DNA of 33,825 bases, taken from Candidatus Heimdallarchaeota archaeon (GTDB taxonomy: Archaea > Asgardarchaeota > Heimdallarchaeia > Hodarchaeales > Hodarchaeaceae). Within the stretch, counting starts at the first letter, position 1. Each line of letters starts with the position of its first letter. Location of the stretch: contig JBHLSH010000041.1 in NCBI GenBank assembly GCA_048881705.1, positions 1 through 33,825 of the forward strand, in the 5' to 3' direction. Positions 3,626 through 24,071 of this stretch are shown one piece after another. The translations under genes were made by a program, and so were the position numbers. The notes below the pieces were generated by a model. That model searched no databases, had not been told where the DNA came from, and saw only the letters and a program-made list of their open reading frames with translations.

Positions 3626-6600
3626 TTATATGAAAGAGAACTGATGTTTGGGCAACGAATTCACCTTTTTTGAGGTCAATGACGCATTGCAGTTTGGACA
3701 TTGCTCTCTTAGTTTGACGCTCTCCAACAGATGATCTCTATGAAAAAAACTGTTACACCGAGGACATTGGATTATGTCAACGCGGGACAAGACTACAACA
3801 GACTTCCGACAAATTAAGCATGTGAGCCTTTGCGGGCAGAATCCACAATTTTTCTGACCTTCAAGAACTGGTTGACCACAACTTGGACATCGGCTCGTTG
3901 TTAGTCCCGTAGAAGTTCCAGGAGTTGTTTTTTCATAGATCTCATTTAATCCAGCCTGCCATATTTCACGAAGTGCATTTGCCGATGAAATTTCAAAGCG
4001 AGCAGCGAAACGCGAGAGCGCCTCTTGGTATTCATGAGTTTCTCTTTGATCTTCAGGAAGCTTCATTAAAACTGGCAGATGTTGCCATGTAAGATATTCT
4101 GCGAGTACAGGTAAGAATCCTGTCTTGAGATGGTCTTGATTGAGCCGCTGGTATAGGTTGATAAAGTAGGAAGCTGCGTCAGGTGGCGGTCGCGTTTTGA
4201 ATTGATCAAAGAGATGAGGATAAAGACTATTTTCAAAGGATCCTATTTCGGGATCCAGTAAAAGCTGTTCTAAAGTTTCTAGGGATAACTCGACAAGATA
4301 ACCTGGCAGTAAATCTCCTTGGGCTTGGGGACGTCCTATAAAGAGTTTAAGAAGAACATTGTGGGTGTGATATGTCCCTTTCACTCCTTTCAGAATGATC
4401 TGAATTAAATTCACCCCAGTTGGTGTAAACCTGGAATAGTTCTCTTCATAGACAGTAATCAGACCCGCGATATAGGCCGAATTCCTATTTACTTGGTTGA
4501 GAAAATGACCTATAACCAATGGATAAAACATTTCAGTGGTTAAAGCAGGGATTATCTGGTAAAGAAGATTCGTGCCGTGTTCAGTATTAACCCCTAAGAT
4601 AAAATTTTCAACTCGAGGTGTAAGCGAATTCAGTTTGAGATTATCTATGGACTTGATAGCGTCTTCAGGAAAACTGGTTATCAATTCTTTAACGATGGAT
4701 GAAGAAAACTCATCGAATTCAGCTTGGAGTTTAGAGCATCGTAATAAAGCATCTCCTAGAAGTCCTTGGAGATCATGCTTGACAAGCTCGACTATTGCCT
4801 CCTGTAAGAGACGAGCTGGGATTGGTTGAGATCGTATTCCCCCGAATAATGAGTATAGTGCGGAAGATCCTTTTTCGGTTGCAATTTGCTGTATATTATC
4901 ACGCCATATCTGTGAAAAAAGACGTGGAGGAAGGATATTCATAATTAAACCAAAATTCGGAACGGACTTTAGCAAAGCTTTAGCATAAAATTTCCGTAGT
5001 AACCCCACTTTTGAACTCGATAGATGACTGACTTCTACCCAAAACAACATTGGCTCTTCATTGATCAATAGTTCCAGGAGTTTTGAAAAACCCTTCTTTT
5101 GTTTTCGCGAGAGGAAAACATTCATTGCATAGGGTAGAGCGTCCTCTATGTTGGCGATCAAGACCTTGGCCCAAAATTCCACACTTTCATTATCTCTGGC
5201 TAATGTTTCTATCACATTTTTCAGTAGAGGGGGATTATTTTCAAAAATAGTGGCGAAGGCCACCAGAGGATACGTGATTTTTGTTGATAGGTCTAGAATT
5301 TGACCAAGTGATGCCGAAGAAATGTGTTCTTCCAAGTATTTGTCCATGTAAGCTTGATCAACCGTTGGTAGTGGTTTTGAAGACAACAATATAGCCTGGA
5401 AGAAATTAAAATCAGTAAACAGTGGATGGAACCTTTTTAACCAGTTATTCTCAATTATGTGAGCAGCGAGCTCAAATTTCATATTGGGGGGGCATTTATC
5501 AAAGATTTTCAGCAACGATTGGTCTGGTATTGAACTTCGATCCATGAGGAATTCCAGAACCTTCTCTCCCTGTCGAGAAGCTTGATCCTGTAGTACTGGT
5601 AGTAGTACTGCCTGATACTCTTCCGAATCAGATTGAAAATACGTATCAATTACCAATGGGATGTTCTGGTGCCCATAATCAATGAAAATCCTCTGTAAGA
5701 ATTCCATGTGATCCTTTAAGCTCTCATCTAGTTGATTTAACGCTTCCAGCATGTTTTCACAAGCATTGAAATCTATTTCTTTGTCTAAAAATGAAAGAAA
5801 TTCTTTAGCAAGCTCATATTCCCTGAGGTTCGTTGTAATAGCAAGGACGTCTGGAGCTGTATGCTGATCATGTTTGGATATCATTCCCAGTAATTCTGCA
5901 AGAAATGTCCTAGATTCTTTGGACTCAAGTAATTTACCTACCTGTACCAATTTTCGAATTGGGATGTTTTTATCGATAAGCCATTGTTGACTTGTTTTCC
6001 TACTTTTTGGTGTTAAGTGTTTTAAAAAATCCCCGATTATCCACCGTAACTCAAGATCTGAAGTTTCAAGGATATTGAGTACCAATTCGGTTTTCTTAGG
6101 AGATAACCTTAGCGGTAAATCCTCCCTCAGCGTTTTTACACGATCTTGTGTTGAAAGGTCTAGCAGATAATCGGTTAATACGTCTTGAGGATTTGTAATA
6201 TATCGCGATAACACCAGAGATGCAATTTTCGGTCCCCAAATGCGAAGTAGGGAGGGTCCAGTATCACTAGTATCTTTCGCCAACTTCGGAATTAGATCTC
6301 CTAATAATTCAGAATCCAACGAATTCAAAAGTGGGCTAAAGCCTGATCTATCAAGACTTGGTTCCCCCCAATTATCAAACACCTGAATTAGAAGCACCTT
6401 TTGTTGATCAATAGAAATTTTTTCGACAAAGGGGAGGAATTCCTTCTCAATTAAAAGACTTAATAAGCGAGATTTCTCTTCTCCCGGCTCTAGTTCTACA
6501 AGGAAGGAAAGAATTGAGATTAAACTATTAGGGAGGGTCTGTACTAATCCATATTTCATTCGAGAGAGATCTTCACCTGATTGGTAAGTTTCAATGAAGG

Positions 6601-6730
6601 ATTTGATCGCGGAGTTTGGATCCTTCTTGATTAACTTATTTATTGACCGTTTCCAAACAAATGGGATCCGCTCTGTTAATTTCTTCCCTTCTCCTTCCAC
6701 GCGGATATTTGGCGTTGTCTCTCGCTGCAT
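3626..6730 (-). CDS. Large Leu-rich, probably alpha-solenoid protein with C-terminal zinc ribbon plus RING-like finger (putative E3-ligase-like protein)
   Basis: 1034-aa ORF of helical, Leu-rich, HEAT/ARM-like character with no TM or signal segment. C-terminus CPSC-x10-CGFC, then CLIC-x14-CPRC-x4-H-x2-H-x10-CPNC. Confidence 0.8.
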   Translation of the reverse strand: MQRETTPNIRVEGEGKKLTERIPFVWKRSINKLIKKDPNSAIKSFIETYQSGEDLSRMKYGLVQTLPNSLISILSFLVELEPGEEKSRLLSLLIEKEFLPFVEKISIDQQKVLLIQVFDNWGEPSLDRSGFSPLLNSLDSELLGDLIPKLAKDTSDTGPSLLRIWGPKIASLVLSRYITNPQDVLTDYLLDLSTQDRVKTLREDLPLRLSPKKTELVLNILETSDLELRWIIGDFLKHLTPKSRKTSQQWLIDKNIPIRKLVQVGKLLESKESRTFLAELLGMISKHDQHTAPDVLAITTNLREYELAKEFLSFLDKEIDFNACENMLEALNQLDESLKDHMEFLQRIFIDYGHQNIPLVIDTYFQSDSEEYQAVLLPVLQDQASRQGEKVLEFLMDRSSIPDQSLLKIFDKCPPNMKFELAAHIIENNWLKRFHPLFTDFNFFQAILLSSKPLPTVDQAYMDKYLEEHISSASLGQILDLSTKITYPLVAFATIFENNPPLLKNVIETLARDNESVEFWAKVLIANIEDALPYAMNVFLSRKQKKGFSKLLELLINEEPMLFWVEVSHLSSSKVGLLRKFYAKALLKSVPNFGLIMNILPPRLFSQIWRDNIQQIATEKGSSALYSLFGGIRSQPIPARLLQEAIVELVKHDLQGLLGDALLRCSKLQAEFDEFSSSIVKELITSFPEDAIKSIDNLKLNSLTPRVENFILGVNTEHGTNLLYQIIPALTTEMFYPLVIGHFLNQVNRNSAYIAGLITVYEENYSRFTPTGVNLIQIILKGVKGTYHTHNVLLKLFIGRPQAQGDLLPGYLVELSLETLEQLLLDPEIGSFENSLYPHLFDQFKTRPPPDAASYFINLYQRLNQDHLKTGFLPVLAEYLTWQHLPVLMKLPEDQRETHEYQEALSRFAARFEISSANALREIWQAGLNEIYEKTTPGTSTGLTTSRCPSCGQPVLEGQKNCGFCPQRLTCLICRKSVVVLSRVDIIQCPRCNSFFHRDHLLESVKLREQCPNCNASLTSKKVNSLPKHQFSFI

Positions 6731-8934: not shown

Positions 8935-9737
8935 GTAGATTTACCAGTCCAACTCTCTGTTTCTCGTTTCTGTGTTTTGATCGGATTGAACATTATTGTT
9001 CTCCATAAACGTTGGTCAAATAAACACATTTTCTACTAGTATTTAAGGTTTATTATAGTATTTATATTATAATTAAATTGAATAATTATTTATGTTTCTT
9101 TCAAAGAAAATTATAAAACTAAAAGTATCATTTTACGATTTCACGAGAAAATCTAAACTATGATTTGAGACGAGGGATTTGGTGAAAAAATAGACCAGAA
9201 TAGGTATATACAGTTAAAATTATCAACGAATCTTTTAATGCTATTATTATTGACAATTTTTACGTTAAACCTTGAGAACTCCATTTTCTGGTTTTTTTAT
9301 AAACGAGGTATCTTTAATATATTTTGTTTACAATGTCGTAATATGAAATTTTTATATGATGGTTCCAGTTTTCCTTTTTTCTATTCTCTTTTGACAGATC
9401 TGCATTCAAAATAATTATGAATCAGGAACTATATAGTTGACCATACCCCTGCTAGATCAGAGTTGTACTCGTATTTTCTGTTGCTTTTATTAGAAAAATT
9501 TTAATCTCTGCCAGTTTTAACATTACCTATAATCTAAATATGCCCTATATATTATCTAGATATTCAGCTTGTATTTACGGAGTCCAATAGCCGTATTGTC
9601 GTAAAGACGTTCTATTGCGTGATCCATGATATGGTTTCTTTGCATTTAAACAGAAATCTCAGATGTAATTTGATTATCTATTTAAAATCCCACTGACTGT
9701 TCCTAAGAAAAATATAATCATCGGCGATGAGGCTTTT

Positions 9738-12245
9738 ATGAAATTCTCAAAAAAGAAGATGTTAACTTTTTCCGTGTATTTCACAATTTTACTGACATCC
9801 TTCATTATTTCACCAACGTCTGGTCAGATACCAGTAAACTTTCCTGAAATGATTGAACCTAATACTTTTGTACCTGAAGATATTTATGATGATTGGCTTT
9901 ATTACATGAATTATCCGGGTGAAGATTATTCCAACCTTGGCATTGTCTATAACGGTATTAGTGGATATCAAAACGGAGAATATACCTATTTTTCCAGTTA
10001 TGATCAATTTGCTTATACTGCAGTTGATTTGACACGGGGAAGTACGATATCCAATAATTTGCTCAGAGAGAATTTACGATCCAGTGGACACCCTCTCTTC
10101 GAACCAGAATCTTATCCTAGGGCGGTGAGGATACCCTCCACCTTTAGTCCTGTTTTTGAGACATCAAGTACTCATGAGGCTATAAGCCTCCATATGGATC
10201 ATTCTTATTCTTTCATGGCGGATGGATACACTAATTATTTTGGTTTTCTGAATACAAGCCAATCATTCTTTTTGGATATAGAGATTTTCGACGGAAGCGC
10301 GGAGGGAGTAATCATCTTTCCTGATGCTCACCCTAGATCGGGGTATTCGATAGGGTACATCGAGAAACGAATGACATATGCATTTATACCTAAGAATAAC
10401 CTGACCATGCCCCTAAATTTCACGTTATGGCTTGATACGGGCTCATTAGTGACATTGACTCCCCATCCCTGGGAATTTCCGACCTATATACCACAAGTAG
10501 CGGTCAACACTACATATTCAGGTAATATAGATCAAGGGACTCGGCAGAGAGTCGTCTCCAACGAAATCATTTATCCTGAAAATGAAATATTCAGCATTCG
10601 CATGTTTAATCTTTCCCTAATAGCGAACCATAGCTATCGAATATTTGTAGATTTTAGCATGCTGGAGTCTTCAGGCTTCACTAGCGGACAACCATATCCC
10701 TTCTTGATTAGCGATTATGCCGAAATATTGGGAGGAGGTTTGGATCAAAATGGATACGAAGTTTACTCTCCTAGGAATGAGAGCGTGATTCTTGTTTTCT
10801 TCGCTCAAGGATGGTCTGTCGGCGAATACACAATCTTTTATCAAAACATAGCAACGGAAGCTGATGAATTTATAGATGGAGCTGAGCTGGAATTCGATAA
10901 ATCGTTTAGTAACCCGGGATACAATGTCTATTATACTTTTACTCTGGATTCACCCCATATGATAGCGCTAAATTATTCAAATTCGAACTGGTTCTATTTT
11001 TATCTATATGTTCCGGGTTCTGAACCCAATGAGTGGGAAATAGTTAGTGATAGATATTTCTTCGATCCCGAAGCAGGAAACCTTTATGGAGATTTTGCCG
11101 GTGATATTGGAAACAATTGGCGTTATTTCCCCGCTGGGACATATGCTATAAGATTCTCATACTATTTGTCTTCTCACATGTTCAGGTTTACGAAAATCCC
11201 AGTGATGACCCCCTCTACCGTTTCTGTGACAAGAGACAGTATTTATGCATTCGAAATTCCGTTAACAAAGAACCGAATCAACTTCGTAAATATTTCAACG
11301 AATGATCAAACGATTCCAAATCAGCAGGTTCAATATGAATATGGATGGGTCGGCAAGTTTAACGAAATGATAAGATACGTTTACAATCCGTCCAGTACTT
11401 GGATTGGCAATAGGAATATATCTAGTCAGTGGATCGGATGGAATTCTAATAACACCGCCATTGAATCTTTCCTACCTGCCCGAGACAATGAACAACCAAT
11501 CTTGATTATACGTCCATACGACGCTCAGAACAGCACAAATGACTTTCCAGATCCTTTTTCTGCAGAATTGACCGTTACGACAAATGTTGCACTCATTCAG
11601 CATGATTCTTATTACGGTTGGAATTACATTGGCGGCGGTTATTTTATTCCGCAAAATGCCATATACTCTACCACTAGTTTTCCAGTGAATAATGATACGG
11701 TTGCTAATACAGACCACATTTACGGCATTCCACTCAGCCTGGCAGAATATCGAATTTACAACATTACTGCAATTTTACATGGCAATTATACAAGTGGGCC
11801 CTCCTCATGGAATGCAACAATCGACGCTTTTAATATTCTGGGGGGTAATCTTGCAAGTTTGGAGATATTTAACACAGAGTCTTCTGGTTGGGATTCAACT
11901 AGGTACTGGAGTACAATGTTGATCCAAACAGTCTCAAGTACGTCCTACTTGTATGTTGATGTCAGCCGTACATGGGATGGATCTAGGTATCGGAACGCCG
12001 TGTTGGAAGTCCGTATTGAACTTGTATCCAACAATTATCTGTATTTCAACATCCCACCCTATCAGTATGGTTCAATGCCGCTATCCACAGAAATTCTTCA
12101 TACCCAATTACTCGCCGCCCAAATAATCGCCAGTGAAATGATTGCAAGGGGAACTCCTGGTTTCGAACTCCTGTTATCAATGGGAGCCCTTGTTGCATTT
12201 ACCGCCGTCATAATCCAAAGTAGGAGATTAAAACACCGAAATTAA
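9738..12245 (+). CDS. Secreted cell-surface (glyco)protein with PGF-CTERM archaeosortase-type sorting signal
   Basis: N-terminal signal (MKFSKKKMLTFSVYFTILLTSFII), a beta-rich Tyr/Asn/Ser/Thr body with many N-x-S/T sequons, and the C-terminus GTPGF + hydrophobic helix + RRLKHRN. Confidence 0.8.
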   Translation: MKFSKKKMLTFSVYFTILLTSFIISPTSGQIPVNFPEMIEPNTFVPEDIYDDWLYYMNYPGEDYSNLGIVYNGISGYQNGEYTYFSSYDQFAYTAVDLTRGSTISNNLLRENLRSSGHPLFEPESYPRAVRIPSTFSPVFETSSTHEAISLHMDHSYSFMADGYTNYFGFLNTSQSFFLDIEIFDGSAEGVIIFPDAHPRSGYSIGYIEKRMTYAFIPKNNLTMPLNFTLWLDTGSLVTLTPHPWEFPTYIPQVAVNTTYSGNIDQGTRQRVVSNEIIYPENEIFSIRMFNLSLIANHSYRIFVDFSMLESSGFTSGQPYPFLISDYAEILGGGLDQNGYEVYSPRNESVILVFFAQGWSVGEYTIFYQNIATEADEFIDGAELEFDKSFSNPGYNVYYTFTLDSPHMIALNYSNSNWFYFYLYVPGSEPNEWEIVSDRYFFDPEAGNLYGDFAGDIGNNWRYFPAGTYAIRFSYYLSSHMFRFTKIPVMTPSTVSVTRDSIYAFEIPLTKNRINFVNISTNDQTIPNQQVQYEYGWVGKFNEMIRYVYNPSSTWIGNRNISSQWIGWNSNNTAIESFLPARDNEQPILIIRPYDAQNSTNDFPDPFSAELTVTTNVALIQHDSYYGWNYIGGGYFIPQNAIYSTTSFPVNNDTVANTDHIYGIPLSLAEYRIYNITAILHGNYTSGPSSWNATIDAFNILGGNLASLEIFNTESSGWDSTRYWSTMLIQTVSSTSYLYVDVSRTWDGSRYRNAVLEVRIELVSNNYLYFNIPPYQYGSMPLSTEILHTQLLAAQIIASEMIARGTPGFELLLSMGALVAFTAVIIQSRRLKHRN

Positions 12246-12307: not shown

Positions 12308-13387
12308 CTAAAAGGTTCTCGATACTAGAAACTGCACTAGTTGATCCATTAATTCACGTGAGTCTTCGCGAAATGGAAGCCTAGAGAGTATATTCCGAGT
12401 TTGTTCAGCTAAATCATTTGCAAGGGATCGTGCCTCTTCGAATATCGCATATTTATTCATTAGTGTCAAGATCTTTTCTATTTCATTTTCGTTTCTTGAC
12501 CCTGGAGGTTTATCCATTATTTTATGCACCAGTTCCGAGTCCTTGTCCTTAGCCTTTTGAAACAGCTTTGCAAGCAAAATAGATCGCTTCCCCTCTTGTA
12601 TATCATTACCTTTCACTTTTAATCCATCAAAATCGGTAGTTAGATCAAGTAAATCGTCAATTATTTGAAAGGCACGACCTAAATTTACAGCAAACAAGTT
12701 TATATTGTCAAACAATTCCTTATCGTCTGAATCATTTGGGTTATATCCCGCAATTATAGCACCAAGTCGCATCGGTCCGCCAATGGTATAATATCCTGTT
12801 TTTCCATCCATTATATAATAAATGTCGTCTATCGTTAAATCTTTTGAGTCTCGCAGTGTTAAATCAGCAGTTTGCCCTACGACAGTTCGCAACATCATAT
12901 CATAAAACTCTTGCCACACCAATCTGCATGTTTCGGGCGTCAAAATTTCTAGATTCCGAGCTAGAATACCCCACATCATCACATGCAACCCATCCCCGGC
13001 ATTGATAGCATGGTCCACCGAATAAATCCTATGAAGGGCTGGTTTACCTCGTCGCTTTTTTGAGTCATCCTCTATGTCATCGTGTATGAGTGCCCAATTT
13101 TGACATAGTTCCATAGCTGCGGCTGTATATTGCGTATCGTCCCGTGAACCTCCAAGGGCTTCGCATGTAAGGATAATCAATGAAGATCTTACATACTTCC
13201 CTCCCCGTTTCGGATAATCTGAGATCTGTTCCCAAAAGAACTTCTCAATTCCCGGCATAACTAGTGGTGATAAGGAGGGAACGGGCTTTGGGCTAATAAA
13301 TTCTTCAATAATCGGCCAAATGACTGTCTTGCAACTTTTTAAGGCGGCAAAGACTGCCTCTTCAGCATCACTTGGTTCTAAATTCAT
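12308..13387 (-). CDS. Short-chain trans-isoprenyl diphosphate synthase (GGPP synthase-like, polyprenyl synthetase family)
   Basis: RGGKYVR, first Asp-rich motif LIHDDIEDDSKKRRGKP, GQTADL, GKTG, second motif FQIIDDLLD, DIQEGKRS. Confidence 0.93.
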   Translation of the reverse strand: MNLEPSDAEEAVFAALKSCKTVIWPIIEEFISPKPVPSLSPLVMPGIEKFFWEQISDYPKRGGKYVRSSLIILTCEALGGSRDDTQYTAAAMELCQNWALIHDDIEDDSKKRRGKPALHRIYSVDHAINAGDGLHVMMWGILARNLEILTPETCRLVWQEFYDMMLRTVVGQTADLTLRDSKDLTIDDIYYIMDGKTGYYTIGGPMRLGAIIAGYNPNDSDDKELFDNINLFAVNLGRAFQIIDDLLDLTTDFDGLKVKGNDIQEGKRSILLAKLFQKAKDKDSELVHKIMDKPPGSRNENEIEKILTLMNKYAIFEEARSLANDLAEQTRNILSRLPFREDSRELMDQLVQFLVSRTF

Positions 13388-13444
13388 TGATTTTTACTTC
13401 CTTGCAAATTAGTTTTGTCCATTTTTAGATTTTGAGAGATGGCA

Positions 13445-14353
13445 CTATCTTTTTAGAGTTTGAAAAACACGCTTTGGAAGTTTTAGTTTTACGCCGGTGT
13501 CACTTGCATCGACAGGTCCTATAACATCAAAACTATCAACTTGAAGATCTTCAGGTACTTCTAGTGCAATCAGCGCCTTGCAGAACCCTAAATATAGTCT
13601 TCCGAAAACTGTAGTTAATAGAAGTCCAAAGAAACCGACCAAGAGAATGAGTGAAATAACCAATAGAGGATTTGATTGATCTAGATTCATCCACCTGGCT
13701 ATTCCCGTAAGTCCAGCGAGGTATAAGAAATCAAAGAATGCCATAAACTGAATTAGGACAGAATCGATAATAACATCTAAGGTACCATATATGACCAACA
13801 GGCCCGCGATGACAAAAAATTGTCTTCTTCGGATCATTAGAATGTAAGAAGTCCTCAGAAGTACTTCCAAGTCATCCTTGGTAAGGTTTTCTAGGGCAAC
13901 AGCACTTATTTCGCCACTGAACTTGATCGTTGGCAAAATGTTGGTTATTCCAACTAATATCACAAATGTAGTCGCTAAGATCAAAGCTATAAGTGTAACC
14001 TTAAATGGAGAGTAAAAATTGAAGAATAAAAATCCCAGAGCGATAAGAAGAGCAACAAGCCCAGCAATCCAGGCAAAGAAAGGGATTAAAGAACCTCCTA
14101 AGATGTTTAAAAAATCGCGCGTTTTCGATCTGGATCCTCGTATAATGGCACCGTAAACCTGTTTTTCCACCCATCCTCGAGAAGTGGATGTCATTGAATG
14201 TGTTTCTCTCCCGTTTTCTCTTGTTCTTAGCGAATTTTCCAAGCCAGCAGCCTTGTCCAAGGTTAATTTTTTGAGTTTGTGACTCAAAAGTGACAGCCAG
14301 ACGCTTATTATCGCTAGTGAGAAAAAGAGAATGAAAATTCCAAGAGAAAACAT
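13445..14353 (-). CDS. Uncharacterised multi-pass membrane protein
   Basis: 302-aa ORF with about five or six hydrophobic helices and no recognised motif. It fills the gap between co-oriented genes. Confidence 0.7.
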   Translation of the reverse strand: MFSLGIFILFFSLAIISVWLSLLSHKLKKLTLDKAAGLENSLRTRENGRETHSMTSTSRGWVEKQVYGAIIRGSRSKTRDFLNILGGSLIPFFAWIAGLVALLIALGFLFFNFYSPFKVTLIALILATTFVILVGITNILPTIKFSGEISAVALENLTKDDLEVLLRTSYILMIRRRQFFVIAGLLVIYGTLDVIIDSVLIQFMAFFDFLYLAGLTGIARWMNLDQSNPLLVISLILLVGFFGLLLTTVFGRLYLGFCKALIALEVPEDLQVDSFDVIGPVDASDTGVKLKLPKRVFQTLKR

Positions 14354-14510
14354 GGCTACACCATTATTATCATATTTCAGCCTGTTTAATTACGTTTTTC
14401 ATATTATTTAATAATCTAGGGAGTGTAACATTCTTGATATAAAGAAATGACAAAGGAAGGGATTTTCCTAAAAATCTCGTATATGCTATGTTTCCAGACG
14501 GAAGGAGGAC

Positions 14511-14518
14511 AAAAAAAA
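14511..14518 (-). terminator. Candidate oligo-T terminator after the prenol-kinase gene
   Basis: A8 on the plus strand (T8 on minus) in a pyrimidine-rich tract about 30 bp after the stop at 14550. Confidence 0.4.
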
Positions 14519-14549
14519 GGAAAGGAGGGAGTGTTACTCCAAATTGGGC

Positions 14550-15362
14550 TTACAGAAAGAAGATGCTGAAGAAAGTACCTTCTAATAAAATATTCAATAA
14601 AAACATAAGGATTATTGTCGAAGCTGGTAGGAGCAAATTATCTACATCAGCGGGCGAAAATGCTTCTACGATCATGGCCACCAGACCTAGGACAATGATC
14701 ACCATCAGCATCTGAACTACGTCAATTCCTGGATCAGGGATTAATGGGCTAGTTAATCCGCCGATTAATCCCAAAAGCACGTAAAATACCAGGCACCCTG
14801 CAACGCTAAAGATAAAGACACTTAGAGAGCCCGTAAAGGTTTTTTCCGGACCTAAGGTTTTATATGTTCTTCCGCCATATTTCTTTCCTATATACGGGGC
14901 GATACCATCTCCCCAACCGACAACAGCCATCATAAAGACACCTACCCATGTATCGAGAAATAAAGTGCCCGCGACCATCATGACTATGGTGAAATAGAGC
15001 GGACCTTTTAGTAATTCCTTGGGATCCCCAGTACGGGTCATGGTTTTGACATCCTTGTCTTCAGAAGTCGCATTGTATCCTTTGTAGAGGAATGTAGCGA
15101 AGAATAGGAGCGGAACAATGATATTGAACATGGCAGAGAGAATATCTGACGTGTCGATGAATAACCATATCCATATGTAGCTACCCGCAGCGATATGGAT
15201 TACTTTCCTTGAGAGATCAGACGATAACGTTCCCGCATCTACAAGACGTGACATCAAGAATATTGTCCCTTGTATATAGATCATCATCACAACCGCACCC
15301 ATAAGGAGATTCCAAATTAGCGGTTGGTCTGGAAGAAGTGTAATATAACCCATAATTTTCAC
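14550..15362 (-). CDS. CTP-dependent polyprenol kinase of the phytol/farnesol/dolichol kinase family (VTE5/Sec59/DGK1-like)
   Basis: Multi-TM protein with SRKVIHIAAG, LLKGPLYF, GWGDGIAPYIGKKYG, EKTFTGS, VEAFSPADVDNLLLP. The start is GTG 15362 or ATG 15353. Confidence 0.88.
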   Translation of the reverse strand: MKIMGYITLLPDQPLIWNLLMGAVVMMIYIQGTIFLMSRLVDAGTLSSDLSRKVIHIAAGSYIWIWLFIDTSDILSAMFNIIVPLLFFATFLYKGYNATSEDKDVKTMTRTGDPKELLKGPLYFTIVMMVAGTLFLDTWVGVFMMAVVGWGDGIAPYIGKKYGGRTYKTLGPEKTFTGSLSVFIFSVAGCLVFYVLLGLIGGLTSPLIPDPGIDVVQMLMVIIVLGLVAMIVEAFSPADVDNLLLPASTIILMFLLNILLEGTFFSIFFL

Positions 15363-15428
15363 CAGAATATTGTTTCAGTTTCTTTTCTTAACCTAATAAG
15401 GAGTGAGCAGAAAACAAAATTAATTATG

Positions 15429-15436
15429 TTTATAAA
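15429..15436 (-). promoter_or_regulatory. Candidate BRE/TATA box in the divergent kinase/IPK intergenic region
   Basis: The minus strand reads ccaacaaa-TTTATAAA about 70 bp upstream of the prenol-kinase start. The TATA sequence is palindromic. Confidence 0.35.
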
Positions 15437-15629
15437 TTTGTTGGAGACTATTTATGGCTATTAGGTGTAAAATTCCCGTTGATGTTTTCCTTATGGTCTT
15501 TCAAAGAATAGCCATTCCATGCCCATAGGAAATTCTCATTTCATTGTTCCTATATTCAGACGTATTTGGCTGATTAGTGGGCCAACTATTATGGATTATC
15601 GGATATGGTAAAAAAAGAACCAAAACCGT

Positions 15630-16478
15630 GTGATTTTAATGGAAATTGATTTGATAATTAAGATTGGAGGATCCTGTCTCTCAAATAAAGCTTTACTCTA
15701 CAAGGCAATGAAAACTCAAGACCCTGAGGATATCAAATATGCATTGCAGCTAAACCTGGATGTAATCGATCAGATCGGTGCTGAAATTAGTAATATTCTT
15801 CAAGAAACCCCGAAAATGATTATTCTCACGGGTGTGGGTTCACCAGGCCACTTTACTGTTCTGAAGTACAATCTACATAAGGGCCACGATGGGACTCTGA
15901 AGCAACGTGTTGGATTTTTAGAAGCGCAGATTGCTGTTAATCGTTTACGTCAGGAGTTCTTGGAATCATTGCTAAGACACGGAGTCCCCGCCATTCAACT
16001 ATATGCTTCAAGCATGTATCAATCGAACAATAGGCGAATCCTTAAAGGGAATGTCGAAAATCTGAGTTGTTTTCTCGATGTAGGTATGATCCCAGTGATC
16101 TCAGGGGATATGGTTCCAGACCAATCGCTAGGTTACAGTGTTCTTTCAGGAGATCAAATATTATACGATTTGACAAAGCATTTCCGACCGAAGACGGTAA
16201 TTTTCGGATCAGATGTTGATGGTGTTTTTACGGCTGATCCCAAACTTGACCCCAATGCAAGGCTACTGCCCGAGATTTCCAAAGAAACTATCGATGAGCT
16301 AGTTTCGAAGAAATTTCAGGACGATGATGCCTCAGGTCAAATGAAAGGGAAGCTATCAGAGATCAAAAACTTGATCGAATCAGGACTTGGTGAAATTCTT
16401 TTACTTAATCTAACGGTAAAAGGAAATCTAACTCAAGCAATCAAATTCGGTGTCGGAAATTTCACTAGAATAAGTTAG
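15630..16478 (+). CDS. Isopentenyl phosphate kinase-like protein (amino-acid kinase superfamily)
   Basis: IIKIGGS, GVGSPGH (catalytic His at 15849-15851), IPVISGD, VLSGDQI, FGSDVDGVFTADP, DASGQMKGK. The start is GTG 15630 or ATG 15639. Confidence 0.85.
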   Translation: MILMEIDLIIKIGGSCLSNKALLYKAMKTQDPEDIKYALQLNLDVIDQIGAEISNILQETPKMIILTGVGSPGHFTVLKYNLHKGHDGTLKQRVGFLEAQIAVNRLRQEFLESLLRHGVPAIQLYASSMYQSNNRRILKGNVENLSCFLDVGMIPVISGDMVPDQSLGYSVLSGDQILYDLTKHFRPKTVIFGSDVDGVFTADPKLDPNARLLPEISKETIDELVSKKFQDDDASGQMKGKLSEIKNLIESGLGEILLLNLTVKGNLTQAIKFGVGNFTRIS

Positions 16479-21799: not shown

Positions 21800-22684
21800 G
21801 TGGAAAGAGTGACATTGCTTGCAGTTAGATTATTGGATTCAGACAATTCAGTAGTTCTATCTACCATGGGATTTACTCTAGAATCAAGTATATCAGAAAT
21901 TTTACCTTTTATTCGTTCCTTACAAGCGAAAAAATCTTCCAATCAGATTATAATCAATCAAGACAAACTAATTGCTTTTCAATCTGTTGGATCCAAACTA
22001 CTGGTGGCTACCGCTACCTCTACAATGGCCATAAATAAAATTCGAAAATTTTTAGCCGTACTTTCGAGAACTGTTTCAAACATATCATCATATGAGGAAT
22101 ATAGGCGGATTGGCGATTTCGAATTCCTTTGTAGAACTGTTCTTGCCGTGGTAGATGCCATACCACGGGTGACTATTGCATTGACTGGTCTAGCTCAGTC
22201 AGGAAAAACAACTTTTACACGGTTTTTCACAAATGGACAACCATTAAGAGAATTCGCTACATATAGACCAACCAGATTATTAGAAATGGTAGAAGTAGCA
22301 GAGATTAAAGAAATTCCTTTTGGCTTGCGGTTCATTGACCTCAGCAGCAGCTTCCAACCTTTTTGGTATTTGTTTAATCAGATTTCTGATGCTTTCATTT
22401 TCTTTGTTGATTGTTCAAAGCGCGATCAAATGCAAAAAGCTCAAGAGTGTTTTCTGGATTTACGTACTTTTTGGGACAAACCATATTGTATAGCAGCAAA
22501 CAAAAAGGATTTGAGTACGGTGAAGGACTTAAAAAGGTTTATTGCCCGTAGATTCCAAGTTCCCACTAATAGGGTTTTCGCAACTGAAACTCTCACAGGT
22601 GAAGGTATTATGCCCCTTCTGGAATCCCTACTTAATTCCGGAATTAATACAGAAAATGAGCTAGTATTAGACCTCAATTCGTGA
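21800..22684 (+). CDS. Arf/Rag-like small GTPase with an N-terminal approximately 120-aa domain (possibly longin/roadblock-like)
   Basis: P-loop GLAQSGKTT (22187-22213), switch I YRPT, degenerate G3 DLSS, FIFFVDCS, G4 NKKD, G5-like TETLTGEGI. Confidence 0.85.
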   Translation: MERVTLLAVRLLDSDNSVVLSTMGFTLESSISEILPFIRSLQAKKSSNQIIINQDKLIAFQSVGSKLLVATATSTMAINKIRKFLAVLSRTVSNISSYEEYRRIGDFEFLCRTVLAVVDAIPRVTIALTGLAQSGKTTFTRFFTNGQPLREFATYRPTRLLEMVEVAEIKEIPFGLRFIDLSSSFQPFWYLFNQISDAFIFFVDCSKRDQMQKAQECFLDLRTFWDKPYCIAANKKDLSTVKDLKRFIARRFQVPTNRVFATETLTGEGIMPLLESLLNSGINTENELVLDLNS

Positions 22685-22766: not shown

Positions 22767-24071
22767 ATGAAAGATCGAGATGACGTGATGGAAGACAGAC
22801 AAATCAAGCGCCAGCTTGAAGCAGTCGTTGCGGTCACAAGGGCGTTTATAAGGCATGATTTCGACACTATGCTACAAAAAGTTTTAACAGCGATCTGTGA
22901 TATGGTTTCCGCAAAATATGGAGCCATTTACCTCCTTGAAAACCAAATCGTCACTCTTGCCGTAGAAATCGGTGCATCAGAAGATCTCATCAGAACGGTC
23001 AAGCACCAGAAATTACCTGAGTCTCAGACCATATCATCAAAGCGGCCGACTGGTTTGGCTGCGCAAACAATTGTGTACAAGAAAACAATTATTCTTGGTC
23101 ATGACGCCATCTCCTCCTTTATGGAAGAAAAAAAGTGGTCAGAATATGCTGGCGAAGTGGTTCGTAGCTTGGGAATTACCGATATACTCTCCACACCGAT
23201 TTTTTCAAAAAATAAGGAATTTGGGGTTATACAACTTGCTCGAATTGTTAACAAACCCTTTTCTTCCCAGGAGATCGATTTGATTGAATCCTTTGCCCAG
23301 GAACTGGCCATAGTATTCGCAGAAAAAGAAACTCGAAGGGAGACAACAGAATTAAGAAAAGATCTAGATTTTTTCATCGATCTAATTTCTCATGACATTT
23401 CTTCGCAGGCGATGATTACACATTCTTGTCTCGAAGAATTACAGAGATTTTTTGAAACAAACAGTTTATTTGAAAGCGAACCTGATCTCAAGTTCTTCAT
23501 GGAAGCTTCTCGACAGAGCATTTTGCACGTGCAGCATGTTATAGATCAGGTGAAACTTTTGAACCGAGTAAGACTTCTCATTCCAGAGGAAATAAAGCCG
23601 TTTGACTTGATCCAGTCAATTAAGAGAGCAATCGTTGCAATAACCAGTTTGTATCCAAGAGAGGATATACGTATTGCTTTTAATAAGTCTGAGATCGATT
23701 GTTGGGCGCGCGGCTCCGAACTGGTGGATAACTGTTTAATTAATCTGTTTCAGAACGCCGTTTTAGCGGATCCTAAACCTGTGAAGAATATCAATATCAA
23801 AATATCACTTGACACGGAAAATGAAGAGAATTGGAAAATAGAAATCGCCGATCACGGCGAAGGGATTCCCGATTCAGTAAAACCTAAGATTTTTGACCGA
23901 TATTTTAGATCTCGCACTCGCTCCAAAGGTTCAGGGCTTGGCCTATATTTGGTACGAAGGATCTTGGAAACACATGGAGGATCTATTCGGGTAGAAGATA
24001 GATTTTATGGAGATTACACCAAAGGAGCGCGTTTTATACTTAAACTCCCTCGTTCGATCCCAGAATCCTAA
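22767..24071 (+). CDS. Cytoplasmic GAF-domain sensor histidine kinase
   Basis: GAF (YGAIYLLE..ILSTPIFSKNKEFGVIQL..FSSQEIDLIESFAQELAI), H-box LISHDI, N-box LINLFQNAV, G1 IADHGEGIP, G2 GSGLGLYLVRRILETHGG. No TM segment. Confidence 0.93.
   Translation: MKDRDDVMEDRQIKRQLEAVVAVTRAFIRHDFDTMLQKVLTAICDMVSAKYGAIYLLENQIVTLAVEIGASEDLIRTVKHQKLPESQTISSKRPTGLAAQTIVYKKTIILGHDAISSFMEEKKWSEYAGEVVRSLGITDILSTPIFSKNKEFGVIQLARIVNKPFSSQEIDLIESFAQELAIVFAEKETRRETTELRKDLDFFIDLISHDISSQAMITHSCLEELQRFFETNSLFESEPDLKFFMEASRQSILHVQHVIDQVKLLNRVRLLIPEEIKPFDLIQSIKRAIVAITSLYPREDIRIAFNKSEIDCWARGSELVDNCLINLFQNAVLADPKPVKNINIKISLDTENEENWKIEIADHGEGIPDSVKPKIFDRYFRSRTRSKGSGLGLYLVRRILETHGGSIRVEDRFYGDYTKGARFILKLPRSIPES

Follow-up and report, generated by a model that had tools for sequence, protein, structure and literature searches.

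We have found that a gene for a VTE5-type membrane kinase (P0001) and a gene for an isopentenyl phosphate kinase (IPK; P0003), which lie side by side in a member of the Hodarchaeales, represent a pairing that is conserved in many archaea and in a few bacteria. Our preferred reading, to which we assign a probability of about 0.5, is that the two genes stem from a widely conserved module of two kinases for the two-step phosphorylation of prenols and that P0003 has a dual role. P0001 would be a CTP-dependent kinase of the VTE5/FOLK kind that converts free isoprenoid alcohols in the membrane to monophosphates, and the soluble IPK-family kinase would add a second phosphate, taken from ATP, to yield prenyl diphosphates that return to the synthesis of isoprenoids and ether lipids; the short-chain prenyl diphosphate synthase encoded nearby would use the same pool. 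Within the genus the module would have come apart, the genes being divergent here and unlinked in most relatives, and P0003 would most likely also carry out the last ordinary kinase step of the archaeal-type mevalonate pathway. The two enzyme activities, their phosphate donors, the chain length of the substrates and the dual role are what we infer from the genes.

Results

The whole stretch of DNA that we analysed (the window) comprises the 33,825 nucleotides of contig JBHLSH010000041.1, and four open reading frames (ORFs) in it occupy exactly the positions given in a first-pass annotation made from the sequence alone. The gene for P0003 lies on the forward strand (15630 to 16478). On the reverse strand lie the gene for P0001 (14550 to 15362), an orphan ORF (13445 to 14353) for a putative membrane protein of 302 residues with hydrophobic stretches, and a gene for a polyprenyl diphosphate synthase (12308 to 13387). 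With GTG start codons the kinase genes diverge, as had been described, across a 267-bp AT-rich intergenic region (15363 to 15629), in which the sequence has a TTTATAAAT stretch near 15429-15438; the gap is 285 bp if the ATG three codons inward serves as the start. The ESM Atlas records of P0001 and P0003 both start at the inner ATG, and the true starts are likely the ATG at 15353 for P0001 and the ATG at 15639 for P0003. We note that the arrangement at the present locus is divergent and not an operon. Among ORFs of at least 100 aa in the window we found no mevalonate-pathway gene and no idi, in agreement with the first-pass annotation.

P0001 has no Pfam or NCBIfam match of its own, even at E<10, and a search of solved structures with its sequence likewise gave no match. 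It has 477 homologues at E<=1e-3, many of them named polyprenol, dolichol or phytol kinase and others diacylglycerol/polyprenol kinase, and precomputed annotation places PF01148 on several homologues that are 56-68% identical to it. A homologue from Fischerella is 41% identical to P0001 over its full length (238 aligned columns), cyanobacterial and green sulfur bacterial homologues range from 41 to 50% identity to P0001, and cyanobacterial and Chlorobi relatives are 47-52% identical to the family query. Phytol kinase is established in cyanobacteria and green sulfur bacteria. P0001 thus shows significant full-length similarity to VTE5/FOLK-type members (COG0170, PF01148 clan). Because of the names of the homologues, the presence of PF01148 in some of them and the identity to the Fischerella protein, we consider the original assignment to the VTE5/Sec59 family to be right, with P0001 being of the VTE5 kind rather than the Sec59 kind. 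The invariant motifs of the protein are SRK..HIAA, VKTMTRTG, GWGDG.AP and EA.SP.D.DN. An AF2 model (pLDDT 90.3) is an all-helical membrane bundle of about eight long helices; the best Foldseek match of the whole model is a weak one to CdsA (4q2e, E 0.038), and residues 136-269, the C-terminal half, align with CarS (5guf) at Z 7.1 and an rmsd of 3.4 Å over 109 aligned positions (VIA), values that helical bundles reach by chance.

P0001 might instead be a dolichol or polyprenol kinase whose role is to recharge the lipid that carries glycans in protein glycosylation, with the IPK serving an unrelated function. The VTE5 family is related to Sec59/DOLK, and several homologues of P0001 are named dolichol kinase by their sources. 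We nevertheless regard this explanation as unlikely, as the nearest non-archaeal relatives of P0001, at the 41-50% identity given above, come from phototrophs and their kin, and as the genome has other proteins that could serve carrier-lipid recycling, namely a paralogue on contig C111 (26% identity to P0001) and another PF01148 protein on contig C11. Recharging of a carrier lipid would also leave unexplained why genes of the P0001 type are found repeatedly beside an IPK gene.

That association is what a survey of synteny across Asgard genomes, which had been suggested as a check, brought out. A P0001-type gene adjoins an IPK gene in 30 of the 151 genomes surveyed, at a distance of at most 1 kb in 29 of them and of 3.3 kb in the remaining one, and the pairing is therefore conserved. 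The paired genomes span 8 family-level groups, and the two genes are usually co-directional. A second, higher-scoring IPK is encoded elsewhere in all 16 of the paired genomes that we checked, and in one of these (G065) the second IPK is fused to IDI2. Outside the Asgard archaea, the pair occurs on four Thermofilaceae contigs and on contigs labelled Caldithrix and KSB1. Paired genes are set apart from unpaired paralogues in the tree of the IPKs as well as in that of the P0001 family, and the groupings are similar in the two. Apart from the present genome, G102 (the closest relative) is the one member of the genus that retains the adjacency, and it has the same divergent arrangement; the adjacency is missing from G062, G139, G107, G119 and G136.

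P0003 scores 174.5 bits against the NCBIfam model NF040647 (cut-off 120; 171.8 bits in the genome search), and its translation, aligned with solved IPKs, retains the K.GG, GVGS.GH (with the catalytic histidine), SGD and G.MKGK motifs. For the clade of IPKs that adjoin P0001-type genes we have coined the name IPK2. In quick IQ-TREE trees P0003 falls inside this clade with SH-aLRT support of 95 (57 rows) or 99 (66 rows), and it scores 113-174 bits against the paired IPKs but 57-97 bits against the remaining IPKs that those genomes encode. The signature of the clade consists of a valine in the glycine loop (GVGS), valine in place of alanine three residues after the catalytic histidine, glutamine in place of histidine or arginine after the second pocket residue, valine rather than isoleucine as the fourth pocket residue, and AS in place of VT ahead of the G.M.GK motif. 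When we took as diagnostic those residues that occur in at least 80% of 17 other clade members and in at most 10% of 34 canonical IPKs, 12 of 19 were present in the genus; of the residues diagnostic of canonical IPKs, the IPKs of the genus have three of six, one of them being leucine three residues ahead of the aspartate of SGD. These comparisons suggest that P0003 belongs to the partner-linked clade and not among the canonical IPKs, a placement to which an AU test that grouped the IPKs of the genus with canonical IPKs of the same class left an alternative that it did not reject (p 0.10).

The alkyl pocket of IPKs is lined by four residues, and shrinking them leads to acceptance of C10-C15 monophosphates (PMC8500459). 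In the partner-linked clade these four residues are not clearly smaller, and only the present genus has alanine at the second position; the pocket therefore gives no sign of a capacity for long chains.

Canonical archaeal ipk genes are usually clustered with mvk or idi. No such association is seen among the ORFs of the window around P0003; mvk and idi2 lie together on a separate contig (C100), in an operon that encodes MVK, a UbiD-like decarboxylase, both AcnX subunits, a UbiX-like protein and IDI2. This is a complete archaeal-type mevalonate operon with idi, and we searched the genome for diphosphomevalonate decarboxylase and phosphomevalonate kinase and found neither. The first-pass annotation had proposed that the two kinases bypass de novo mevalonate synthesis; with the complete operon present nothing needs bypassing, and we abandon that part of the proposal. 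The check for a second canonical ipk that had been recommended came back empty, in that a profile search of the genome returned P0003 as its sole IPK above the NF040647 cut-off. Given that no canonical IPK was found and that the operon makes isopentenyl phosphate, P0003 is probably also the ordinary mevalonate-pathway IPK of the cell. The other candidate in the genome is a genus-specific fusion of an IPK-like domain to an MBL domain, which could take this role instead of P0003.

These findings bear on a second explanation, according to which P0003 does ordinary housekeeping as the kinase of the mevalonate pathway, there is no two-step coupling in this organism, and the position of the gene is a leftover or reflects a loose isoprenoid neighbourhood. 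An operon that ends in isopentenyl phosphate and a genome with one IPK over the cut-off speak for this explanation, and the divergent orientation of the genes, their separation in most of the genus, the three canonical residues and the outcome of the AU test all fit with it. Retention of the 12 partner-clade residues, branch support of 95-99 and the conservation of the pairing across many lineages that also have a canonical IPK argue in the other direction, as does the second IPK-derived domain of the genus, which could itself take the housekeeping role. We regard housekeeping alone as possible, though doubtful.

The UbiD-like and UbiX-like genes of the mevalonate operon raise a third explanation, in which the pair would control C5 monophosphates: with prenol as the starting material, P0001 would supply dimethylallyl phosphate (DMAP) to the UbiX-like prenyl-FMN synthase, on which the mevalonate decarboxylase depends, and the IPK would keep DMAP and DMAPP in balance. 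Bacterial UbiX does use DMAP. Integral membrane kinases of the VTE5 type, however, act on lipophilic alcohols, the pair also occurs on contigs labelled bacterial, and at the loci that we fetched, in which we screened for IPK, DUF92 and polyprenyl synthase only, the pair was not seen linked to UbiX or UbiD. We consider this explanation highly improbable.

The remaining two genes of the proposed cluster fared differently. The product of the synthase gene matches PF00348 (174.7 bits) and carries both aspartate-rich motifs, DDIED and DDLLD, which bears out its description as a trans-prenyl diphosphate synthase. Its nearest NCBIfam models are IdsA (163.8 bits) and GGPP_syn (155 bits), all below their equivalog cut-offs, and we describe it as a short-chain, IdsA/GGPP-synthase-like enzyme. 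The genome has one further PF00348 gene, at G000:C1:176868-177599. In both G102 and G136, an orthologue of the synthase gene follows directly downstream of that of P0001. The orphan ORF exists as had been reported, but its membership of the cluster does not stand: it has no Pfam or NCBIfam match, no homologue at any of the fetched loci and none in any of 20 further genomes from the genus, and in G102 about 200 bp, free of any ORF, separate the synthase gene from that for the prenol kinase. The orphan ORF may represent an insertion specific to this strain, or may not be a genuine gene.

Discussion

The two-step prenol route that had been proposed for this locus is thus borne out in part. The conserved link between VTE5-type kinases and IPKs and the placement of P0003 in the partner-linked clade speak for it; the bypass of mevalonate synthesis, the orphan ORF as a member and adjacency throughout the genus do not form part of the version that we favour.

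The logic of the favoured route, in which an alcohol would be converted to a monophosphate and then to a diphosphate, is that of phytol salvage in plants and cyanobacteria, where VTE5 or FOLK is followed by VTE6, a phytyl-phosphate kinase (DUF92/COG1836). The first enzyme of that pathway is of the same family as P0001. The second kinase differs, in that VTE6 is a DUF92 membrane protein whereas the gene linked to P0001 encodes an IPK of the amino-acid-kinase fold. We note that the present genome does encode a VTE6 homologue (DUF92), on contig C69 beside genes of acyl-CoA metabolism and unlinked to P0001, and that most of the genomes with the pair also have one; there is therefore no missing VTE6 for which the IPK would have to make up. 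In another family of the Heimdallarchaeia (f2), the other VTE5-like paralogue is fused to DUF92. With an IPK linked here, a DUF92 protein unlinked and this fusion in f2, two parallel systems appear to exist.

P0003 shares its fold family and its catalytic histidine, lysine and aspartate motifs with archaeal IPKs (EC 2.7.4.26; NF040647; PDB 3ll9, 7lnt, 8u0k, 3k4o and 3lkk). The clade in which it probably belongs is separate from canonical archaeal IPKs, has a signature of its own, and is tied in the genome to a prenol kinase and not to mvk or idi. The chemistry that we propose is also that of engineered isopentenol utilisation pathways, which combine a promiscuous alcohol kinase with an IPK but are laboratory constructs. 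Engineered IPK mutants that accept geranyl or farnesyl phosphate have enlarged pockets, which are unmatched here save for the alanine at the second position in the present genus.

That farnesol and geranylgeraniol are salvaged in two steps has been clear from biochemistry for decades, in animals and plants as well as in parasites and archaea, while the genes are known only in plants (FOLK, VTE5 and VTE6) and, for the first step, in Plasmodium; for the second kinase no enzyme has been identified in the literature outside plants (PMC10849223, PMC9782597). For archaea, biochemical evidence of 1996, as cited in two later papers, indicates that a C20 prenol is phosphorylated in two steps, and these papers give no genes for the activities (PMC9385802, PMC9782597).

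The conserved association of a VTE5-type kinase with an IPK paralogue of its own provides a concrete and easily expressed candidate for this second salvage step, and would be a counterpart in nature to the alcohol-to-diphosphate pathways that have been engineered for the production of terpenoids. We suggest, tentatively, that the partner-linked clade of IPKs represents the naturally occurring oligoprenyl-phosphate kinase, which would be the enzyme so far missing from the second step of farnesol, geranylgeraniol or phytol salvage. In the Hodarchaeales this same enzyme would have become the sole conventional IPK, and the canonical one would have given rise to a fusion of kinase and phosphodiesterase. 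If this is true, then such an IPK, paired with a phytol-kinase-like enzyme, would enable sediment archaea to channel free alcohols of C15-C20, phytol from the decay of chlorophyll among them, into ether-lipid synthesis. For the present genome the point is a narrower one, namely that the enzyme that annotation would take for the ordinary IPK of the Hodarchaeales probably belongs to the partner-linked clade. The Hodarchaeales are the archaea closest to eukaryotes, and the probable presence in them of an IPK from this clade bears on how the change of the mevalonate pathway in that lineage is reconstructed.

Genes of the cluster

The window holds two kinase genes in close company with a prenyl synthase gene, and the ORFs named in the first-pass annotation are all four present at exactly the coordinates it gave. 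A polyprenyl synthetase gene (12308-13387, minus strand; PF00348, 174.7 bits) and the gene for a VTE5-type membrane kinase, P0001 (14550-15362, minus strand), flank an ORF of 302 aa, and a gene for an isopentenyl phosphate kinase (IPK; 15630-16478, plus strand; 174.5 bits against NF040647, cut-off 120) is transcribed divergently from P0001. The kinase genes are 267 bp apart, or 285 bp if the ATG starts used in the ESM Atlas records are taken, and mevalonate-pathway genes are absent from the window among ORFs of at least 100 aa, again as annotated; the kinase pair with its synthase is thus confirmed as an observation. The synthase comes nearest to the NCBIfam models for archaeal IdsA/GGPP synthase, with scores under their equivalog cut-offs, and a second PF00348 gene is present in the same genome. 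The 302-aa ORF drops out of the cluster to which it had been assigned as an unknown membrane protein: it is an orphan that matches no Pfam or NCBIfam model, has no homologue in any of 20 further members of the genus and lacks a counterpart in the syntenic gap of G102, the closest relative.

Elsewhere in the window we note a 1034-aa ORF (3626-6730, minus strand) upstream of an 835-aa ORF (9738-12245, plus strand), both lacking a family match; the segment at the start of the latter (9001-10000) has 29% G+C, against a window mean of about 40%. A 294-aa ORF with a weak match to Arf-family small GTPases (21800-22684, plus strand) is followed by a sensor-kinase-like gene with GAF and HATPase domains (22767-24071, plus strand).

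P0001 matches no Pfam or NCBIfam model, and a PDB sequence search with its family profile returned nothing. We classify it by sequence as a putative prenol kinase of the VTE5/FOLK type. It has 477 homologues, among them some with PF01148 and many annotated as phytol kinase, dolichol kinase or diacylglycerol/polyprenol kinase; going by the names of these homologues, the source organism belongs to Hodarchaeales (Heimdallarchaeia). A search of species-representative genomes with the family alignment found relatives in Melioribacteraceae/Ignavibacteria, cyanobacteria (Fischerella, Westiellopsis and others), green sulfur bacteria, Thermofilaceae and Asgard archaea. P0001 is 41% identical to a Fischerella protein over its full length; identity to the paralogue encoded on contig C111 is just 26%. 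The motifs SRK..HIAA, VKTMTRTG, GWGDG.AP and EA.SP.D.DN are invariant in the family. AlphaFold predicts a membrane bundle of helices (pLDDT 90.3), for which the top Foldseek match is weak (the CDP-DAG synthase CdsA, E 0.038); the C-terminal half aligns with the CDP-archaeol synthase CarS at Z 7.1, a value that is not decisive for a helical protein.

Pairing of the two kinases

P0001, the family model for IPK and the IPK of the window served as queries against 151 Asgard genomes, and the coordinates of the hits were then compared. An IPK gene adjoins a P0001-type gene in 30 of these genomes, which fall into eight family-level groups (15 in f10, five in f16, three in f13, two each in f1 and f26, and one each in f9, f23 and f27). 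Almost all of the pairs are co-directional with gaps of less than about 250 bp; one has a spacing of 3.3 kb and two are interrupted by contig ends. Sixteen of the paired genomes were examined for a further IPK, and every one has another, higher-scoring copy elsewhere. In G065 (f13) this copy forms a fusion with type 2 IPP isomerase, an arrangement shared by the IPK of one unpaired f24 genome and one that marks such IPKs as pathway enzymes. Fusions of canonical IPK, that is, IPK of the unpaired kind, with type 2 IPP isomerase are seen in f24 and f13, and in f16 the IPK has an N-terminal extension of about 170 aa of unassigned nature; the loci concerned are L057:433-2343, L034:1489-3393 and L067:675-2009, all plus strand.

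Outside the Asgard archaea, an IPK gene lies directly upstream of a P0001-type gene in four Thermofilaceae contigs, and also in contigs labelled Caldithrix and KSB1 whose neighbouring genes are bacterial in appearance; no IPK lies near the P0001-type gene at any of the fetched Melioribacteraceae, cyanobacterial or Chlorobi loci. The adjoining IPKs belong to at least two subtypes, so that the pairing draws on more than one IPK lineage. The different subtype, found upstream of the P0001-type gene at L141, L142, L140, L144 and L159 (Njordarchaeia, one Promethearchaeati contig and the two bacterial-labelled contigs), is recognizable by HGTG or HGVG and by having, where the GD motif would normally stand, ADG or GDG and then Pro.

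The window IPK appears to belong with the partner-linked enzymes. In quick trees, made without bootstrap or outgroup, it falls together with the other IPKs of its genus in a clade whose remaining members are solely IPKs that adjoin P0001-type genes (57 rows, SH-aLRT 95); the same clade has 25 members and support of 99 in a tree of 66 rows. The tree of the P0001 family shows matching groupings and splits the paired genes from a second clade of paralogues. The genus IPKs carry 12 of 19 residues diagnostic for the paired clade and three of six diagnostic for canonical IPKs. Residues typical of the paired clade include a Val within the GVGS glycine loop, a Gln that follows the second residue of the alkyl pocket, a Val as fourth pocket residue and Ala-Ser ahead of the G.M.GK motif. 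An AU test does not reject a tree in which the genus IPKs join the canonical enzymes of their own class (p 0.10, log-likelihood difference 26.5), and the placement in the paired clade therefore relies on branch support and signature residues. We regard membership of the window IPK in the paired clade as well supported but not proven.

The first-pass annotation had called for a survey of synteny across Asgard genomes; the pairing is conserved in the eight family-level groups listed above, but within the genus only in G102; in G062, G139, G107, G119 and G136 the P0001 and IPK genes lie apart. Adjacency of P0001 and the synthase is retained in G102 and G136. In the window the two-kinase module has loosened, and its genes run divergently. 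We also note that the genome search placed an in-frame TAA in one IPK orthologue of the genus (G107:C57:2042-2878).

Mevalonate pathway and role of the window IPK

It had been proposed that the two kinases and the synthase recycle free prenols and so bypass de novo mevalonate synthesis. A search of the genome for a complete pathway found one: contig C100 (L071:4394-9878) carries a compact, full archaeal-type mevalonate operon encoding MVK, a UbiD-like decarboxylase, the large and small subunits of AcnX, a UbiX-like flavoprotein and a type 2 IDI, the last interrupted by the contig end and resuming on C58. The salvage interpretation, with its predicted activities, is accordingly only partly supported, in that the conserved kinase pairing speaks for the two steps but the operon speaks against the bypass. 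With a eukaryote-type mevalonate pathway an IPK would be dispensable; however, neither diphosphomevalonate decarboxylase (DMD) nor phosphomevalonate kinase (PMK) is found in this genome (91% complete) or in G102. When 20 genomes of the genus were compared, five or six had DMD, in agreement with a published account (PMC11052028). An archaeal-type operon in the absence of DMD and PMK implies that the pathway ends in isopentenyl phosphate and that an IPK is required.

The window gene is the sole IPK of the genome over the NF040647 cut-off; the second, canonical ipk that the annotation had suggested looking for was not found, nor did the phylum sample yield one from any of its eight members of the genus. 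The genome holds one other candidate for the pathway enzyme, a 572-aa fusion of an IPK-like (amino-acid-kinase) domain with an RNase Z-like metallo-beta-lactamase (C29:36536-38254, minus strand; L072:16537-18255). Its kinase domain scores 67 bits against NF040647, retains all the catalytic motifs (K.GG, GAGSIGH, SGD and G.MQGK) and branches outside the paired clade in the 66-row tree. All eight sampled members of the genus have the fusion, and the other 143 Asgard genomes of the sample lack it; its gene neighbours encode a GNAT acetyltransferase and a Ras-family GTPase. Either the window IPK would cover both roles or the fusion would be the pathway enzyme, and we lean towards a dual-role window IPK, since of the two proteins it is the one that still has the score of an IPK.

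The alkyl pocket of IPK is lined by Y70, V73, V130 and I140 in the Thermoplasma enzyme (PMC8500459), to which F96, A99, M161 and V171 correspond in the window IPK; the first two positions come from an alignment with the M. alvus IPK and with an Ile-to-Ala variant of that enzyme, the other two from spacing. Other paired IPKs mostly have Leu, Thr, Met or Ile, and Val, and canonical Asgard IPKs Phe/Val/Ile, Thr/Ile, Ile/Val/Ala, and Ile. Comparison of these four residues reveals no clear enlargement of the pocket in the paired clade, and the substrate could thus lie anywhere from C5 to C20.

Relation to known prenol salvage

The closest known system is the phytol salvage of plants and cyanobacteria, in which VTE5 is followed by VTE6. 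Here too the pathway would open with a member of the VTE5 family, but the enzyme linked to it as second kinase has another fold. Reviews know of no identified second kinase for the salvage of farnesol and geranylgeraniol outside plants (PMC10849223, PMC9782597), and we found no description of a natural pair of IPK and prenol kinase in the open-access literature.

The VTE6 homologue DUF92 is itself encoded in this genome, beside acyl-CoA genes on contig C69, and in 89 of the 151 Asgard genomes. Most pair-bearing genomes are among these, so that the two candidates for second kinase are not complementary in distribution. In G139 (L049; G139:C9, 3513-7471) and G062 (G062:C64) the IPK lies about 2.3 kb from a DUF92/VTE6 gene in divergent orientation; we give this proximity little weight, an NAD-dependent DNA ligase gene lying between them in G139. 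In f2, another family of Heimdallarchaeia, a protein of about 530 aa combines a DUF92/VTE6 domain with a VTE5-like kinase from the other clade of paralogues (L099:275-1873, minus strand, in G133, and in some ten other f2 genomes). This fusion joins the first and second prenol kinases of the plant type in one protein, and suggests that two-kinase systems exist in parallel in two versions, a plant-like one and one that uses an IPK.
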